NCBI GenBank assembly: GCA_051047955.1
Contig: JBPGPT010000060.1
Coordinates: 1-45,564, forward strand
From: Cystobasidiomycetes sp. EMM_F5
Lineage: Eukaryota
Length of the DNA: 45,564 nt
Direction: 5' to 3'
Positions 21,234-45,564 of the stretch are shown here, one piece after another. How positions within the stretch are numbered: position 1 is the stretch's first letter; every line of letters begins with the position of its first letter. A program made the translations under genes and the position numbers. A model generated the notes under the pieces. The model was not told the DNA's origin. It saw nothing but the letters and a program-made list of their open reading frames with translations, and did no database searches.

Positions 21234-23388
21234 ATGTCGAGATTGCAGAAACGCAGGCCGAGTCATGTAGCCGCAGCCAGCTCGTCGTCGTGGAGCTCGC
21301 CGCATCCTCTGCAGGCCAGTGTGGACATCGCAAACCGGTCAAGGACGAGAAAACATGCTGCGAGCTATCACGACCTCTTACGACTCGGTAGGAGTCATTC
21401 GAAACCTTCTTGCTGCCGCAAATCACGCTGATTTGTTCCTCCAGTCGACCTGCCGTCTCAGATTCATGAACCCCTCCTGGGATGGTACGGCTCAAGGGGT
21501 GACCTGCCCTGGCGTAAAGATCTATCCGATGAGCAGATAGCAGCTCTTGCTGATGCGGACAAGGCTCAAAGAGCATATGAAGTGAGTTGGGAGTGGCACA
21601 CTTCGCTCCATCTGATGTACATCATGCAACAGGTGTGGGTATCGGAAATCATGCTGCAACAGACGCAAGTCGCGACTGTGATACCATACTACAACAGATG
21701 GTATGTCGGACCCGACTTGTCAATGTCGATTCGCCGGCTCATTGAGTCCATTTACACACACAGGATGGAAGCATTCCCCACTGTTCAAGTACTAGCAAAA
21801 GCAGATATTGAGGCGGTGAACGGTCTATGGAAGGGCCTCGGCTATTATTCGCGAGCATCGCGACTATTGGAAGGTGGCAAGACTGTCGTCAATACGTATA
21901 AGGGAAAACTGCCTTCCGATCCAGACATTCTCGTAAAAAAGATCGAAGGAATTGGACCATATACTGCAGGAGCAATCGCATCGATAGCCTACGGAGTCAG
22001 AACTCCCACTGTGGACGGCAACGTGAGTCGCATGATTGTTGCTATATCTGTAACAATCGCTTAAACATCCGTGAACCCTTTCAGATACAAAGAGTCATCT
22101 GTCGCCTACTAGCGATACATGCCGATATGAAGAAGAAGGCCACTGATGCATACATTTGGCAAACCGCCAAAGATCTATTGCCAAAGTCGCGCTCAGGGCA
22201 TTGGAAGTAGGTCTTGTTGCTGCCGAAAGAAGCCATGACATCAGAGCACATCGTCATTGCTGACGCACTGTGAGATAGTCAAGCACTAATGGATTTAGGA
22301 GCCACAACATGTATACCCAAAAACCCCAAATGCAAGGAATGTCCGCTGCGGACTGTGTGCATGGCATACGCTGAACAGGTTAGGCCACGTCAAAAGGCCA
22401 AAAAATCTTGTGCAAAAGATATGCTGACATCCATCTCATGTCACTCAGACAAAATATGCTTCTGCCAAACGGCTAGCACAGGCTGTTGACATTGAAGATC
22501 TGGCAATAAAGGGCGACGAGTGCGACTTGTGCCTGCCGCTCGATCCGCCTACTCTCGAACGCGACGTGACAATGTATCCGCTCAAGGTAGTCAAGAAAAA
22601 GTCGCGCGATGAAGACCTAGCCGTTTGCGTTGTCGAGTGGCGGTCGCGTGGCAACGACCAAGCGGAAAAGATTCTGCTTGTCAAGCGGCCGAAGACTGGT
22701 AAGTACCCTATTCGATGCTTCTTTTGCCGTACTTTGAAGCGGAAACCTGATCATTACGCAATGGGTTCTTCAGGTCTTCTAGCTGGCTTGGATGAGTTTC
22801 CTAGCGTGGTCATGCCAGAAAGCGCATCAACACTGTCAGAGCGGAGTTTGAAGTCAGAAGAACTGCTAAAGGAGCTGCTTCACCTTCCCGAGACATTTTC
22901 TCTTGACAGCTCCCGCGACTACATAACGTGTGAAGTCACATCTTTCAAAGATTTTGGCAGCATCAAGCACATTTATTCGCATATAAACGCGACGTTTCAT
23001 TGTCGTCACCTAGTCATATCAGCAATCAGTCCGCCCCGCATTCGAGGCAGTCATGATCGTTGCCGATGGGCTACAAAAGCGGAAATCGAAAAGGCCAATA
23101 TTTCGACAGGTACGATTGGTCGTTTTGGCGTCTTTCGTCGTCTTCCACTGACACTCTGTTGCCACTTTATCCTGAACCGCCAATATGATAGGTGCTGTTA
23201 AAGTCTGGACTTTAATCTCGTCGGGCATACCCGTCAAGCAAGGCAAAGCTAGCAAGCGGAAATCTTTACCGGAAGCGAATGGATCTCGCAAGATTTCGGA
23301 CTTCTTGAGTAGAAAGACTGTGTCTGTGGAAGTCATGCCCTCCCCAAAACGTGCGCGTCGTATCGTAATCGACAGTGATTCGGAGTAA
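21234..23388 (+). CDS. MUTY: A/G-specific adenine DNA glycosylase (MutY/Myh1)
   Basis: [41 protein letters not shown], HhH motif IEGIGPYTAGAIASIAYG, VDGN, WNQALMDLGATTCIPKNPKCKECPLRTVC ([4Fe-4S] motif), NUDIX-like KRPKTG-LLAGLDEFP and IKHIYSHI. Confidence 0.95.
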
Positions 23389-23586: not shown

Positions 23587-32999
<9,413 letters not shown>

Positions 33000-35497: not shown

Positions 35498-37428
35498 ATG
35501 GGCGAGGCGAGTACCTCTGCAGTGACTGGACGGCGTAGCAGTAAATTCAAGAGTCTCCTGGCGAGGCTGGGCGGGAGCAACAGTGCGAGTGCGACATCGT
35601 CAAAGGCAGGAGCAGGAGGAGCTACAGCAATATCGACGTCGAAAGTGAGCTTTAAAGAGAATAATATGTTTAGGATGAACACGCTGACTGGAGAACGAGC
35701 TAGGGCACCATAATAACCTCCAATGCGACTCCCAAAGCTCATCGCAAGGCAGCGACGAGCAATACAACCCCAGCTCAAGCAGTCAAAGCCCAGGCCAGAG
35801 CTCGTGGCAGCAGAGCCAACGGCAGCAGTGAAGGTTACTCTGATATCGCAGGACAGACTGAAGCTGGACCGTCATCTGCGAGTGCTGCAGCTGAAATGCA
35901 AGCCAAAGCAGCTGCCTTGTCGTCGAATGATGCGCAAAGACGACAGCCAGACGGCAGTGATGCCAACGACGACGACGACGACGACGACGAAGAGCTAGAT
36001 GGAGCTGATGCAGACGCGTCTATACGTCCGCTCACTCCGTCTTCGTTGGTCGCGTCATCGTCGTTTACAGGCAGTACATCCTTGGACTCTCGTGCCCCGA
36101 CGAGCAGGACATTCAAGAGCTTTGTGACGGGGCATAGCAAGACTTCGGGATCCACTAAACCGAAAACACTGGCTTCGGCTTCTGGAGGAGCAGGCGTATC
36201 GACGCATGCAAGAAACACGCCAAACAGTCCACCCCGTCCTGCTCGACTGCTTGCAAACTCTACTGAGCAGCCGGAACCGCATACAAGGAATGGCGCTGCA
36301 ATTCCACTCTCGTCTAATTCTATCCCGTCAGTCGAGATGCACAACAGCAGTTCCAATCGCATCGCTACCAGCATCCACGAATCGCGTGATAATGAGACTG
36401 CGACTGGCCTGCAGACGACAGCGCTGCAGTCCGACCCAACATCCCAACTCCCTACCAGCACAAGCGCACTCAATGAGAGTCCTGCATTACCAAAGTTGGT
36501 CAAGACGTCGAGCCCACTACGCAACAGCTTTACAGGAGATCAAGCGCCTTCTTTGAGCGAAGTTGTGATTGCTGCCGAAGACGTAACTCCACCTCACTTC
36601 AGGCCGAAACGGAGTATGAGCGTGGAGGAGCGATGGGACGAGGAAGGAGAAGGAGAACGTCGGGATAGCGATTCTGTCGTTTTGCCTTCGTCTAGGTCAA
36701 TTACCTTTTCGCATTTACCGCCCCTCACGAATCGACCTGCGTCAGCGAATGGTACTGTAAATACGGCTACATCCGCCGACATGGTTGCGGGTGATACAGA
36801 AGTACCTTCGCACTACCCTCGACATTTTCACCCCGATCCCCGCAACAATCCCCGAGCATCGTCTCCACCTCCAGACAATGCATCTACGCTGACGCTGGCT
36901 AGTTCGACTGGCGGACACGCACAGAGCATCTACCGCGACGCTATGCATGGGGATGAAGGGACATCCACGCCTGTTGTCGGAACACCGGGCATCTATCAGC
37001 ACAGCACATCCTCCCCTGCACCACTCTCTGCCGCCCGGTATCCGAGCTACATGGACGGGCTAAAGTATGCGCACAGCTTCAGGACGGATCGTACCGGAGC
37101 GGCCGAGGACGCGAGCATCCGAGCTCTTGCCCCCTCTCGGAGGGAGAGCATGGACTCGCTCGGCTCAAAGTGGTCGGCGGCTGTACTGAGTGCCAAACCG
37201 CCGTCTGCGAGTGTGGGCGGTGGAGCGGCGAGTACGAGCGCGGGAGAGTATGCTGGGACGTGGGCGTCGACGTCGGGAGATGCGAGTGGAGCGGGAGTGC
37301 CCGAGCACCACAGCTACTCGTCGTCGGAGCGGGGCAAACGGAGAACGCCGAGCACGAAGACGAACGCTACGGCTAGCTCGTCGTACTATGCGAGTGCGAG
37401 TGTGCAGCCGACGGCGGTGGTGGTGTAG
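35498..37428 (+). CDS. Hypothetical Ser/Thr-rich disordered protein
   Basis: ATG at 35498, an intron at about 35645-35703, then a long open frame containing DADASIRPL, PRNNPRASSPPPDNASTLTLASS and EDASIRALAPSRR. Confidence 0.7.
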
Positions 37429-40296: not shown

Positions 40297-43200
40297 TCAT
40301 AGAATCTGCAGTCCCTCGGAAGCGATTAATTTGAGGAACTCTTGAGCCAAATCTTGTGGTACTGCCTCGACGAGTGGGCCGATTTTGCCTGGATTCGCTC
40401 GACTGCACTCACTTAGCGCACGGGCCATGTACGTTCCTGAATCATGAATGTCGGGCAAAGTATCGCGCCGAGCGGGCTCAGATGCTCCAAGTTTGGAGAA
40501 TGAAGCTTGGTAACCTGATTCTTCCAAGTCGGCAATGTGAATGACCTCATCATCTCCAGCGCCGGTTGTCGCCAAATCCCTGGGCAGCAGGAATAGGCGC
40601 AAAAATGTCTCAAATGTAGCAGGCCTACACACGGTGGCCGTGTCAGTCCAGATTGGTACACGTGTAATAAAGATCAAGTGCGCACCAAGCAGAAACGCCG
40701 CCATTGAGCATGTTTGAGCTTTTGGTGAGGAGATTAGCCAGTCCTACGGTGACGATCTTGCGATCTTTTGGCGCGGTTTTCTGAATGTCAGGAAGCATCT
40801 TCTCGAGCATCTTGATGAAGAGCCTGTTTATTCGCGAGACCATGTGAGCGTTTTACACAAGCGTCTTCGATCGTCTCTTCAACTCACCCTGGCTGCAGGC
40901 TTTCCAGCTGTTGGTAAATCTCATCTGCCCCCAAGCCGGGCTTTTGGGTGGCTATTGGTAGCAGAAGCGCTCTCACGAAGGACTCGGTAAACCGTGGAGT
41001 CTTGCTCTGCGTTAGACGGGTCATGAGCAGAACGAAGATATCTCGCAAATACGGCTGTAAGCTTGACCTAGCAAGCAGAACAAAGTCAGTAGCGAGTCAA
41101 AGTCCGAAATAGGCTAGGCGACGCACGAAGGGATATCTTGGAACAAGCCTTCGACCAATTCGCATCCATTCGGGTCGTTCGCCTTCGATTGCAAAAGGAA
41201 GCGAACGATGTCCTTGATCCGATCGAGTTGTCCGGTCGATACGATAATATTGGACCCTTTCTCGAGAAAGGCACGCAACAGGCGGACGAGTGCAGGAATA
41301 TTGCCTCTGTTGTTGATCCACAGACTTGCATCCATCACGGGCGGGATCAGAGCCTCGTATGCCGCCGGCAGCGTACCCGGCTGGTGGAGCTCGAGTAATT
41401 GTGACAGTATTTGAAAAACGAAAGGTGAGAATTCGGCAATGTCCTGAGCAAGAATGTACTGGAAGGGCGGGAAAAGGGCTGCCTCGAATTCAGGCAGCGT
41501 CGATGGAGTACCGGCGACCACGAATCTGATCATGCATGCGAATATGTTTGCTCAGCCTGAGATCAGGTTTTGCAAGATGCACGGCTTACCGAACTAGGGC
41601 AGACATGCTCTCAAATGTATAGTGGCTGAATTTTGGATTACTAGGGTTCTTGCTAATCTCGCCCATGATGTTGGTAAGATGTTGCAACACGACATTGTAT
41701 ATAGGCGTCATCGCTTGACGTGCGACGATAATGACTCGCATAACACCTGTATCGAAAGTGTCCTGTTTAGCCAGTTCCTGACATACACAAGTAAGGCTCA
41801 CATCGCATAAGCAGATCGTTCTTTGAAATCTCCTCCGGAGTTGTGCCACGCTCGATAGTGGTGAACAAAGCTACAAGCAAGCTTTCGGCGAACGGCCTGA
41901 TGTCCGCTTGACCAAATCTGTTTAAAAATCCGTCAGCTCAGCTGGCTGGACGAGCGCCTCTTGGACCTCACAATAGGGTATTCTTCTGCTTGATGCTAAG
42001 TATTCGTTCAATCGTCATTGCAGCGTAGGAGTGGATGACGAAAGAGTCGTGTTGCAAAAGAGGCGATAGTATGGGAACAACTGACACCAATTGTTCTTTG
42101 GTGAGCTGACTACGGAAAGTGTACAAAAATTTGACGGCGTCCGCAATGATGATGGGATGCGGTTTGTTGGCAACATCGGCAGAGGCTTGTAAGTCTTGCA
42201 GGACGTGGTCTTCGAAGAATTGAACGACTCTGATGAGAGAATTTGTTGATGTGACACCTTGTTGAGCTGTGACTCCTCTTGCTGCAATTGATGTCAACAA
42301 GAACACAGCGGTATCCTTGTCTTTCCAGTGTGCTGCTTTGTCTGCGTTGTATCGCTGCAAATGAGCTTGTATGTACGTGCTAATGATTTCTGTTACGCGA
42401 GCTTCGAACTGGTCCATTAGCGCGCGAGTAAAGTCTGAAGCCGATTGTCTTCTGGTTTCCGCGTCTGCGCTCCATGCTGTTAATTACGCATTTTGGGCTA
42501 ACCGAGACAGAGACAATCTTACCTCCCGCAGTTTCCAGCAAATCCCGTCTGACATACTCAAACGGATCGTCCTCAAACATCTCTTCTTCGAAAGCTGATA
42601 CATAAGGCAGTCGCATTAATGCTATGCCGGCGTGGCAGAGGTGCTCACTTACGACGCAACGCCATATTGGGTAGAACTATCTTCTCGCAGAAGCTCTCCA
42701 GTACGCCGGGCCCTTCAAACATCGCCTTCTTACCGGGCATGCGGACTGAGACTGACAAAAAGCTAATGGCCTTGCTGACGAGCTGTAATGGCAGTTGAAG
42801 GTGAGCAGATGACCTTGAAGATATCGATAGCCGGCTGAAAGCAACCTACAATATCATACTTTACAGATTGACCCAAGCCCGTTAGCAATGTCCACGTAGT
42901 CTCCACAAACTGCTCCATCATGGTAAACTCTTCCAAGTATTTCTGGGTGTACAGCTGCGCAATTTCGCATATACTTGCTCGAACCTTCTCGAGCGGCCCA
43001 GCTTCATCTTCATCGTCATCGCTCACGAGTTCTGGCCTGGACCACGTCAGGTATTTGTGGAGGAGAGCCATACAGGGGACAATGTTAGTTTCGAAGAATT
43101 CAGGCAAGTCCTGGCAGTTGAGATCGTAGAATATTTGCAACAGTAGGAGGAGTGTACGCGAAAGAGTTGTTGGATCTGCGGGAGACGGCATGGTTTGCGG

Positions 43201-44041
43201 AGCTGATAGCAGCTGATCCGTTCTCTGCATTCGTAACGAAGCCTTGTCAGCAATGAGCATGGAGATTGAACATGCCGCAATATACCTGAAACAGCCCCAT
43301 GAATGGCTCGCAGAACCGCTCCAAGACGTACTTGATTTCGAGAAACAGCTGATCTGATCTGAATTGCGACCTCCATCTGTGTGCTGTACTTTAGCAAGGC
43401 TCCTGAATGCTGCGTCTGTGAAGACAGATGCCCACCTCCTGAATATCGCGTGGGCGGTCTGCAGCACGGCGTTGTTGACGATGAAGTTGTCTTGCGTAAA
43501 GTTTGCCACCAGTTGCTATCAAGAGTCTCGTCAGAAAGCGCAACCTGCTTGAAGCGGATAAAGATATGCTCACATCCACCAAATCCACCCATTCGTAAGG
43601 AAAGTCTGCTTCTGCCACGACTGCAATAGCTTCGCCGACTTGAACTTGAATATTTGGTACTCCAGACAGCTGGATCATGACTTGGACGATGCCAGCTTTG
43701 AGCGGCGCCCTGTCCGCATCCGGCACCGGGAATGGAGATGGTTCCTCATCGTTCTAACGCGGTCAGAGTACTTCCTTCAGCCGTATATCCCAATGTGCCT
43801 GACTGGTGTCGAATGAAGAATAAAAACATACAGACGCCCAGCCTTCGCGGATGTAGTTCTTGAAGGCTACCGCAGAAGCTTGCCGTACAGCCTTGTCGAA
43901 GCCGTCGGACTGGGCGAGTTCGAGCGCCGTCTGGCTGAAACCTGGGCTCGTTTTGAGCTGCTCGAGCTGCCTTTCCGCTCCTCTGCGCTCTGCAGGACTG
44001 GGCGACAGCGACGTCTGAAGCAGAGCTGCGAGCTGTTGCAT
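40297..44041 (-). CDS. CSE1: Importin-alpha export receptor Cse1/CAS (exportin-2)
   Basis: IBN_N domain (AERRGAERQLE...VRQASAVAFKNYI), IAVVAEADFPYEW, FYDLNCQDLPEFFE, EEMFEDDPFEYVRRDL, WKDKDTAVFL, ISKNPSNPKFSHYTFES, EFSPFVFQILSQLLE, GNIPALVRLL, EESGYQASFSKL. Confidence 0.96.
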
Positions 44042-44369
44042 GGTGTGGGCAGGATTGCAGAGTTGGCAGAAAGATCAAAGAGAAGTTGCGACTTGTTTGA
44101 TATATTTTGGACTGATCAACGGTCAATGGCTCTTTCCTTCGCTCCATTCGCGCAAGCTTCCATTGATTCAATGCAGTACACGCTCGCATTGCCATGGCCT
44201 TGCATTCTGACAACGTCCCGTTCAAATACCCCGGAGCGCTTCCTTGAGCGATGCAGACTAACGACGAAAGGGAACATCCTGATGTCGCTGATGAAACGGG
44301 AGACGCAAACTGACCTTTCTGATCCATTCAATCGCTTACGCTCGAATTGATCATCGTAAATACCACACC

Positions 44370-45564
44370 ATGCCGCGATATCGTAGTCGCTCTGGCAGCC
44401 AGAGAGGATACACCCTGATAGCCCTATGCACACTGACATGTGCAAGCACGCTGGCCGTGCACGCAGCAATACCCTCTTGCTTTACTGAGAAGTGTATGCC
44501 GTACGTACCGGGTGAGTGCAACGCAGCCTCCGCTTAGACGAGACCTGACCGCCTCTTGACAGATTGTCAAGGCGATCAAGGTGGAACGGGATGTGTCTCG
44601 TACAGCTGCGCTGCAGCGTGCTTGACTACTGTTTGTGCAGACCTTCCCGATACAACTGGCGCAGACTGGTACTGCATGAAGAAGCGTGACGGAGGCGATG
44701 TGACAAGCACGCCAATGTCGCCAAATCATCTAGTCAAACGTCAAGACAAGGTGGACATCGATTCTGCAATCGCTGCACCCACATCAGTTCACAACAAGCG
44801 CAGTGGATCGCACACAAACGCCAAACGTGCTACTCTGCCTGCTTGCTATACCTCGCAATGTCTGACCAAAGTGCCTGGTAAGTTGACACTATTGCCCTCT
44901 CGTGTGCCAGATGGACTGAGCACATCACGATACAGAATGCAAAGGCGACCAAGGAGGCACTGACTGTTTGTCGGCTCCGTGCATAAGAGAATGCTCCCAC
45001 GTCTACTGCACAAATAGTGCCGCAGGCGAAGTACGGGCACTCTCGGATGCGGAATGCCCACACCCAGAGTACGCATCCTTCTTTGGATCATCAGCTGCAG
45101 GAGCCATGGCGGGCTACGATCGTCTGCGCCGTCGACAAGAGGACGGCTTGCTGCCAATCCCTTCGGAAGGATACATTGCGAAGCGTCAAATTGTTTCTCA
45201 ACCTCTATCTGACCCGGAGCCAACCCTTCTGAAGCGACAAGATGGTGGAGACGGCTTGCCGGCTATCGCGTCTGAGGGCACCATTGCCAAGCATCGTCGC
45301 GATGACGGCGTAGCGGGCACCTATGGGACTGGCGGCTCAAACACTTATGTCGGTGATCCAGGAGAGGGCTACACGATCGTCCGCGCGAAACGGCAAGATG
45401 ACGGAGATGCATTGCCGGCTATCGCGTCTGAAGGTACAATTGCCAAACGTCAAACTGCCTCTCACCTTCTGTCCCACCCGAAGCCAACTATATTGAAGCG
45501 ACAAGATGATGGAGACGGCTTGCCGGCTATCGCGTCTGAGGGCACCATTGCCAAGCATCGTCGC
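44370..45564 (+). CDS. Secreted Kex2-processed repeat polyprotein (two 8-Cys domains plus short peptide repeats), truncated by the window end
   Basis: Exons 44370-44511, 44563-44877 and 44936->end splice in frame. Signal-like MPRYRSRSGSQRGYTLIALCTLTCASTLAVHA, Cys domain 1, KR-delimited spacers, Cys domain 2, then KR/RR-delimited repeats of Q(D)DGDGLPAIASEGTIA. No stop before 45564. Confidence 0.85.
45130..45564 (+). repeat. Coding peptide repeats with a 264-nt higher-order period
   Basis: 45230-45300 and 45494-45564 differ at one base (ggt/gat). Related sub-repeats lie at about 45133-45186 and 45391-45450. Confidence 0.92.

Follow-up and report, generated by a model that had tools for sequence, protein, structure and literature searches.

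A putative Kex2-processed repeat protein with paired eight-cysteine modules at a contig end of a Cystobasidiomycetes phyllosphere yeast

Introduction

What is encoded by a gene whose reading frame is still open when its contig ends? This question is raised by a plus-strand locus that begins at position 44370 of contig JBPGPT010000060.1 of Cystobasidiomycetes sp. EMM_F5. The window analysed here is this whole contig, that is, 45,564 bases of DNA from a phyllosphere yeast of the class Cystobasidiomycetes. According to its announcement, the genome may be the first genomic resource for the family; the yeast was isolated from a leaf surface and has no sister taxon among 27 genomes of the class, the assembly was produced with SPAdes from 2 x 151 Illumina reads, and the genes are funannotate predictions made without RNA data (PMC12697161).

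An earlier note on the same DNA had described the locus as a secreted hybrid polyprotein of a family that it did not recognise. In that account, two canonical introns join one open frame, which has a signal-like N-terminus, two eight-cysteine domains, at least 11 dibasic sites, four peptides of the form LPxIxSEGxIA, two peptides of a second type and a Gly/Tyr peptide. Many of the products were said to start with Gln, and the layout was likened both to KEX2-processed repeat proteins and to precursors of peptides that are made on the ribosome and modified after translation (RiPPs). The note also asked for the downstream sequence. Our analysis puts the probability that the gene encodes a secreted Kex2-processed repeat protein (KEP) of this basidiomycete phyllosphere yeast at roughly 0.65. 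From the DNA we infer its splicing, secretion and cleavage, and we likewise infer pyroglutamate formation and any activity of the products.

Gene model

Three open pieces (frames running from stop to stop) are found on the plus strand between 43800 and 45564, and they are connected by two short introns with canonical signals. Joining of the exons 44370-44511, 44563-44877 and 44936-45564 (plus strand) by script yields 1086 nt, that is, 362 codons without a stop, and the joined frame remains open at the last base of the contig. The ATG at 44370, which no other in-frame ATG precedes after a stop, stands in the context CACACC-ATG-C. When left unspliced, the frame of exon 1 runs into a stop at 44535-44537. 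Intron 1 carries a CTGAC 14 nt upstream of its acceptor, and intron 2 has only a near-match, CTGAG. The parts of the gene are as follows.

44370-44511, plus strand: exon 1, with the start codon, the signal-like segment (residues 1-32; 44370-44465) and Cys 1 and 2 of module 1
44512-44562, plus strand: intron 1, 51 nt, phase 1, GTGAGT...CAG
44563-44877, plus strand: exon 2, with the last six Cys of module 1 (to 44678), a KKR site, the linker and Cys 1 and 2 of module 2 (from 44829)
44679-44687, plus strand: KKR site at the end of module 1
44688-44828, plus strand: linker with three KR sites, within exon 2
44878-44935, plus strand: intron 2, 58 nt, phase 1, GTAAGT...CAG, positioned in module 2 as intron 1 is in module 1
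44936-45126, plus strand: exon 3, first part, with the last six Cys of module 2 and the Gly/Ala/Tyr-rich tail of this module
45127-45564, plus strand: exon 3, second part, with an RRR site followed by the peptide array, open at the contig end

At the N-terminus of the joined frame, residues 1-32 comprise five Arg, then a 17-residue hydrophobic stretch and then V-H-A at positions -3 to -1. The 19-residue Kyte-Doolittle profile reaches its maximum of 1.91 at residue 16, with no other window at or above 1.6; outside residues 1-40 the best 19-residue window is 1.32, a value that refers to the visible part, the C-terminus lying beyond the contig. The N-terminus appears signal-like, having the shape of a cleaved signal peptide.

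Two paralogous cysteine modules

The spliced protein contains 18 Cys residues, two in the signal-like segment and eight in each of two modules, which occupy residues 33-86 (module 1) and 137-216 (module 2). Successive Cys are separated by gaps of 4, 6, 8, 4, 3, 4 and 12 residues in module 1 and of 4, 6, 8, 4, 3, 4 and 15 residues in module 2, and the motif GDQGGT is common to both. Local alignment of the two modules gives a score of 123, as compared to 30.9 +/- 5.9 and a maximum of 65 for shuffled sequences (n=2000). Moreover, each module is split at the same point, after its second Cys, by a phase-1 intron. Because Cys gaps, shared motif, alignment score and the point and phase of the introns agree, the modules are, judged by sequence, paralogues, and their duplication included the intron. 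Within the sequence itself, nothing argues more strongly for the splice model than this paralogy with its shared intron.

The modules are separated by the linker of 47 residues, and module 2 is entered after a KR and left at the RRR site. The tail that follows its last Cys (45058-45126) has a high content of Gly, Ala, Tyr and Phe. Its position is the one at which the 264-nt period of the array described below would put a Gly/Tyr peptide, so that the tail may represent a degenerated copy of this peptide unit. Structure prediction for the exon 3 translation with AlphaFold2 in single-sequence mode gave a mean pLDDT (predicted local distance difference test) of 39.6 and a pTM (predicted template modelling score) of 0.19, too poor for a fold search.

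Basic sites and the peptide array

In the mature part of the protein, 12 sites of the type [KR]R were counted, as compared to 2.08 +/- 1.24 in 20,000 composition-preserving shuffles, whose maximum was 8 and none of which reached 12. These basic-pair sites fall exactly on the borders of modules and repeats, and within the array 18 of the 21 Lys and Arg residues lie inside the site blocks KR, KHRR or RRR. The array, which lies entirely in exon 3, is made up of the following peptides and is overlaid by two copies of a longer repeat.

45136-45180, plus strand: LP-type peptide, variant copy that is one residue shorter
45187-45231, plus strand: second-type peptide, Q..S..L(S/L)..P.PT.L
45238-45294, plus strand: LP-type peptide with KHRR end
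45301-45387, plus strand: Gly/Tyr peptide, 29 residues, three Tyr
45394-45444, plus strand: LP-type peptide
45451-45495, plus strand: second-type peptide, Q..S..L(S/L)..P.PT.L
45502-45558, plus strand: LP-type peptide with KHRR end, at which the sequence stops
45148-45300, plus strand: higher-order repeat, first copy, from a direct-repeat search
45412-45564, plus strand: higher-order repeat, second copy, 83% identical to the first, its final 55 nt being an exact copy of 45246-45300

The higher-order repeat is thus a direct repeat of 153 nt at a spacing of 264 nt, which corresponds to a unit of 88 codons; Tandem Repeats Finder reported no repeat. Between the three exact LPAIASEGTIA cores there are three nucleotide differences, all of them at third positions and all synonymous, and the six-residue leaders ahead of the cores vary in protein sequence. 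This pattern hints that the core peptide itself may be under constraint. The core is devoid of Tyr, Trp and His, and in the array Tyr occurs only in the first, variant copy and in the Gly/Tyr peptide. The leaders (45238-45258, 45394-45414 and 45502-45522) are acidic and read Q-D-D/G-G-D-G/A-L-P; the word DGDGLP occurs also in the long D/G-rich repeat proteins P0003 and P0004. We take these leaders to resemble DxDxDG-type calcium-binding loops.

The dipeptides that follow the 11 sites having a next residue are DG, QD, SG, AT, QE, QI, QD, DD, QD, QT and QD, that is, Gln comes directly after seven of the 11 sites and an XA or XP dipeptide, the signature of Ste13, after none. Cutting and trimming in silico would release two acidic mini-proteins, disulfide-rich and with lengths of 54 and 80 residues, together with three pieces of the linker. 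From the array would come four or more copies of an acidic peptide of 15-19 residues based on LPAIASEGTIA, two peptides of the second type, each 15 residues long, and the Gly/Tyr peptide in a single copy. Apart from one, the predicted products are all acidic, with isoelectric points of 4.05-4.8. The spliced protein has no NxS/T sites and no Ser/Thr-rich stretches.

Most of the earlier description is recovered by these data: the two introns are borne out by the joined frame, the signal-like N-terminus is present by hand rules (five Arg, hydrophobic stretch, V-H-A), Cys count and shared spacing support the two eight-cysteine domains, and the second-type peptides and the Gly/Tyr peptide are all in the sequence. 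The dibasic sites number one more than the lower bound given, and a Gln start applies to seven of the 11 visible downstream products. Two details need correction. Three of the four LP-type peptides fit the form LPxIxSEGxIA, with the exact core LPAIASEGTIA, and the shorter first copy does not; and the peptides had been written as ending in ...IA, whereas at both KHRR sites removal of the basic residues would leave ...IAKH.

The contig end and the deposited annotation

Since the last 55 bases of the contig copy an earlier stretch, the assembly broke inside the array and the 3' end of the gene is missing. The gene thus breaks off where the contig itself does, and not merely at the edge of a window, which leaves the wish for downstream sequence without an answer in this assembly. 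The visible part is the 5' two-thirds or less of the gene. Further copies of the repeat should be present in the unassembled 3' part, and the rest of the gene may lie on a small or discarded contig.

Rebuilding of the deposited model of the locus (44676-45435) showed that it keeps the donor at 44878 and uses an acceptor before 45026, so that a 148-nt intron skips 44878-45025. The resulting protein has no signal peptide, and most of module 2 is skipped with three Cys left there. We conclude that this ab initio model is worse than the two-intron model.

DNA from other studies covers parts of the gene as well. Three contigs of 151-165 nt, from three runs, match with 0, 2 and 5 differing letters, and a fourth run gave none. 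The two contigs with 2 and 5 differences span 44611-44775 at 97-99% identity; of the four differences listed for this interval, one is silent and three change residues (P76S, K87N and V94L), and K87N turns the KKR site into NKR and so keeps the KR pair. Being DNA, these contigs carry no splicing information.

Search for relatives

Relatives were sought in several ways. A phmmer search against 1.84 billion representatives returned four matches at E <= 0.001, one of which was the locus's own deposited model. The three other matches are long repeat proteins that share short D/G-rich words, DGDGLP among them, and have neither the Cys module nor a KR-bounded array, and they were rejected. In a word-index search, none of 8000 candidates scored among the 'longer' lengths reached E <= 0.01, and among 2712 candidates of 'near' lengths the sole hit was the deposited model of the locus. 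When a profile was built from the exon-internal parts of the two modules, none of its 18 candidates reached E <= 0.1; of 271 pattern stretches matched in a metagenome scan, none encodes a relative; and two queries of the ESM Atlas returned no usable match.

Comparison of the exon 3 translation, which holds six of the eight Cys of module 2, with PDB sequences gave best E values of 0.058 and 0.68, both rejected, and a Pfam match to DUF834 was rejected at 16.9 bits against a cut-off of 23. At E values up to 1, Pfam gave no other match, CFEM and other named eight-cysteine fungal domains included, in scans that covered the exons separately and never all eight Cys together. A tblastn search with the spliced protein for additional copies in positions 1-44300 gave only E = 5.6 and 8.1, and a literature search on mycocins in this yeast class turned up nothing that concerns the gene. 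The earlier remark that the family is not recognised holds after these searches. The absence of relatives is weak evidence of true orphan status, because annotated proteins from this class may be few in the libraries and no sister of the host has been sequenced.

Genomic neighbourhood

Upstream, the gene is flanked by a divergent exportin gene.

44043-44369, no strand assigned: intergenic, presumed promoter and 5' untranslated region, 327 nt, shared with the divergent CSE1/CAS exportin gene
40297-44074, minus strand: CSE1/CAS exportin, with IBN_N, Cse1 and CAS_CSE1 Pfam matches

The exportin gene consists of at least six open reading frame (ORF) pieces split by short introns, and its start codon is 327 nt away from that of the precursor. 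The other Pfam matches on the contig are housekeeping: NPL4, lactonase, Xrn1, Vfa1, RNA polymerase largest subunit, HhH-GPD/NUDIX, BEACH, armadillo and mitochondrial carrier. When 84 distinct ORF translations from the 44 kb on the upstream side, the one side present in the assembly, were scanned against Pfam, none matched a family for peptide tailoring (DUF3328, tyrosinase, methyltransferase, peptidase). In 32.5-44.4 kb, where 56 ORFs have 90 or more residues, the scans omitted 27, mostly of 90-125 residues and overlapping longer ORFs; in 1-32.4 kb, where 67 ORFs have 110 or more residues, they omitted 12, all of which overlap a longer ORF.

Elsewhere on the contig, Pfam gave nothing at E <= 1e-4 for long open frames of 354, 416 and 574 residues, which are located at 27192-29519 on the minus strand and at 35704-37428 on the plus strand, and at 21432-23201 (plus strand) HhH-GPD followed by NUDIX_4 over at least two ORF pieces gives the layout of a MutY-type adenine glycosylase.

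Discussion

According to the published KEP pipeline, such proteins carry a signal peptide called by SignalP 4.0 or 3.0 and are free of membrane segments by TMHMM; KR/RR sites divide them into four or more fragments, of which three or more are similar, and repeats make up at least 15% of the protein (PMC6339444). As the earlier comparison with KEX2-processed repeat proteins had suggested, the features that can be counted in a sequence are present in the visible part of the gene. It yields 12 fragments of at least two residues; three fragments share the exact core LPAIASEGTIA and one is a shorter variant, as determined by eye and exact match instead of Fimo; and the repeats amount to 4 x 15 / 362, that is, 16.6% of the visible part, not of the full protein.

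In the mechanism that we propose, the basic and hydrophobic N-terminus would lead the protein into the endoplasmic reticulum and would be cut near Ala32/Ala33, and each of the two paralogous modules would form four disulfides as it folds. A Kex2-type protease of the late Golgi would then cleave after each KR or RR and a Kex1-type carboxypeptidase would remove the basic residues, and the N-terminal Gln of the products that begin with it would cyclise to pyroglutamate. By analogy, the products suggest extracellular peptides for signalling or surface interaction, like Ustilago Rsp1 or the Coprinopsis KEPs, rather than a modified toxin. We favour such linear secreted peptides because the peptides look unmodified, are acidic and hydrophilic, no tailoring gene was found among the upstream ORFs scanned, and the neighbourhood is housekeeping. 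A role as effectors or toxins is conjecture; none of the products has a detectable relative.

The known KEPs (Le Marquer et al. 2019; Umemura 2020) resemble this gene in their signal-like N-terminus, KR/RR-bounded repeats, several motif types and lack of homologues. Stand-alone (orphan) KEPs account for 2560 of 7878 in one survey (PMC7329392), and 79 of 1193 KEPs in another carry two or three motif types (PMC6339444). Unlike in KEPs generally, two folded-looking eight-cysteine modules precede the array here and are themselves bounded by sites; moreover, the 3' end is missing and the processing is predicted. A combination of this sort is described for Ustilago maydis Hum3, which has Kex2-bounded repeats and an eight-cysteine hydrophobin domain in one secreted protein, and U. 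maydis Rsp1 is described with 11 hydrophilic repeats of 18 or 21 residues between Kex2 motifs (PMC4617103), which come near the 17-21-residue units seen here in both size and character. Unlike in Hum3, whose repeats are described as amphipathic and 31-36 residues long (PMC4617103), the Cys modules come first here. They have no CC pair (the hydrophobin pattern C-CC-C-C-CC-C is absent), which sets them apart from hydrophobins, and no hydrophobin match in Pfam scans of the separate exons, and the comparison with Hum3 and Rsp1 is accompanied by no sequence similarity to anything in the libraries.

For Coprinopsis cinerea, mass spectrometry is reported to have revealed KEP-derived pyroglutamate peptides of 8-20 residues, rich in Pro and acidic residues, from a KR followed by Gln, and one KEP of this fungus is fused to a folded glycoside hydrolase domain (PMC9769878). 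The peptide sequences differ from those here, which are known from sequence alone, and the Ste13 signature is lacking here. The signal peptide, pro-region and KR-bounded repeats of ascomycete alpha-factor and dikaritin (ustiloxin-type) precursors also recall the present layout. An alpha-factor relationship finds no support, as there is no MF_alpha Pfam match and XA/XP follows none of the 11 sites; nor does a dikaritin one, with no DUF3328 (UstYa) match upstream, the one side covered, and a repeated core that lacks the aromatic residue, usually Tyr, through which dikaritins are cyclised. KP6 of U. maydis differs in that the modules here are mutual paralogues and smaller, the gene is chromosomal with introns and not viral, and a peptide array follows. 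The KP6 chains are reportedly small and disulfide-rich, with an excised linker between them. Like the protein considered here, KP6 starts as one secreted precursor, which is described as being cut by Kex2 into two polypeptides (PMC11119588).

Several points weigh against the KEP assignment. The signal peptide was assessed by hand rules only, and the synonymous-only signal in the core peptide rests on just three differences. An RNA record that would support expression or either intron was looked for, and none is listed. No relative was found, and hence there is no conservation of sites to compare. The C-terminus lies beyond the contig and could hold a transmembrane segment or a glycosylphosphatidylinositol (GPI) signal. 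The deposited model, a 203-residue partial 'hypothetical protein', starts at Met86 and ends inside the array. Finally, the mechanism presupposes KEX2, KEX1 and a glutaminyl cyclase in the genome.

There are also other explanations of the locus. The Cys-rich modules could be the functional products, that is, two-chain killer-toxin-like proteins or apoplastic or competitive effectors, with the array as a discarded pro-region, spacer or carrier. Two paralogous, disulfide-rich and site-bounded modules with a linker cut at three KR sites would suit this idea, as would the leaf-surface habit of the host (PMC12697161), the two polypeptides that KP6 yields from one pre-protoxin by Kex2p together with the acidity described for most yeast toxins (PMC11119588), and the described class of Kex2-processed pro-domain effectors (PMC8528282). 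However, the core peptide has been kept at the protein level while synonymous sites diverged, which is not expected of a mere spacer; the exon 3 translation is unlike the sequence of any solved structure, and the module profile found no relatives. We regard the idea as unlikely. A bolder version, in which the polyprotein, encoded on a chromosome and with introns, delivers a new-fold, two-chain, disulfide-rich killer toxin (mycocin) by KP6-like logic, from the two acidic paralogous modules and their excised linker, plus pyroglutamate-bearing acidic peptides as signal, modulator or immunity factor, is a long shot drawn from analogy; if it were true, such a mycocin-plus-peptides polyprotein would be a fungal counterpart of multi-hormone precursors. 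It is similarly improbable that the gene encodes a structural repeat protein of the cell wall or surface, bound by GPI or through its repeats, in which most basic pairs stay uncut and Kex2 removes at most a pro-peptide. Wall proteins are also described as Kex2-processed (PMC9769878; PMC6258133), and an anchor signal may lie beyond the contig end, but basic residues are nearly confined to the repeat borders, NxS/T sites and Ser/Thr-rich stretches are missing, and Pfam scans at E values up to 1 gave no hit to PIR or to any other family of wall proteins.

A RiPP precursor of dikaritin or another modified-peptide type, with its tailoring genes beyond the contig end or elsewhere in the genome, would share its layout with ustiloxin-type precursors. 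A DUF3328 gene within 15 genes is reported for 22% of KEP genes (PMC7329392), the Gly/Tyr peptide offers three Tyr, and the downstream flank lies outside the contig. Since the dominant core lacks Tyr, Trp and His, and no tailoring family is found among the upstream ORF translations with their housekeeping neighbours, this origin has even less to recommend it, and of the earlier account the architecture holds up while its RiPP-like part finds no support. Least probable of all is that the deposited model is correct or that no gene exists here, the Cys-module exons not being expressed as modelled and the frame being an annotation mirage or a decaying gene. The partial model itself, with its start at Met86 and its skipping of 44878-45025, and the lack of a listed RNA record speak for this; however, that model is an ab initio funannotate prediction made without RNA data (PMC12697161), its protein has no signal peptide and just three Cys in module 2, and across the 88 nt that it skips the frame is open and repeats the Cys spacing of module 1 and GDQGGT. 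A mirage is furthermore at odds with a 362-codon open frame and with a site count that none of the 20,000 shuffles matched.

Taken together, the KEP reading assigns the gene to a kind that is known; the eight-cysteine module is an unrecognised one, and the deposited annotation is wrong. The gene does not constitute a new kind of system, as orphan, multi-motif and domain-hybrid KEPs have already been described. If the model is right, the gene is an orphan, multi-product KEP from the little-sampled Cystobasidiomycetes, and its module, with fixed spacing and GDQGGT, matches nothing in the libraries searched. Mining of this genome for secreted proteins or KEPs would overlook the gene, because the deposited annotation lacks the signal peptide and both Cys modules. 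The predicted pyroglutamate peptides built on LPAIASEGTIA would present a concrete target for peptidomics in a culturable phyllosphere yeast.

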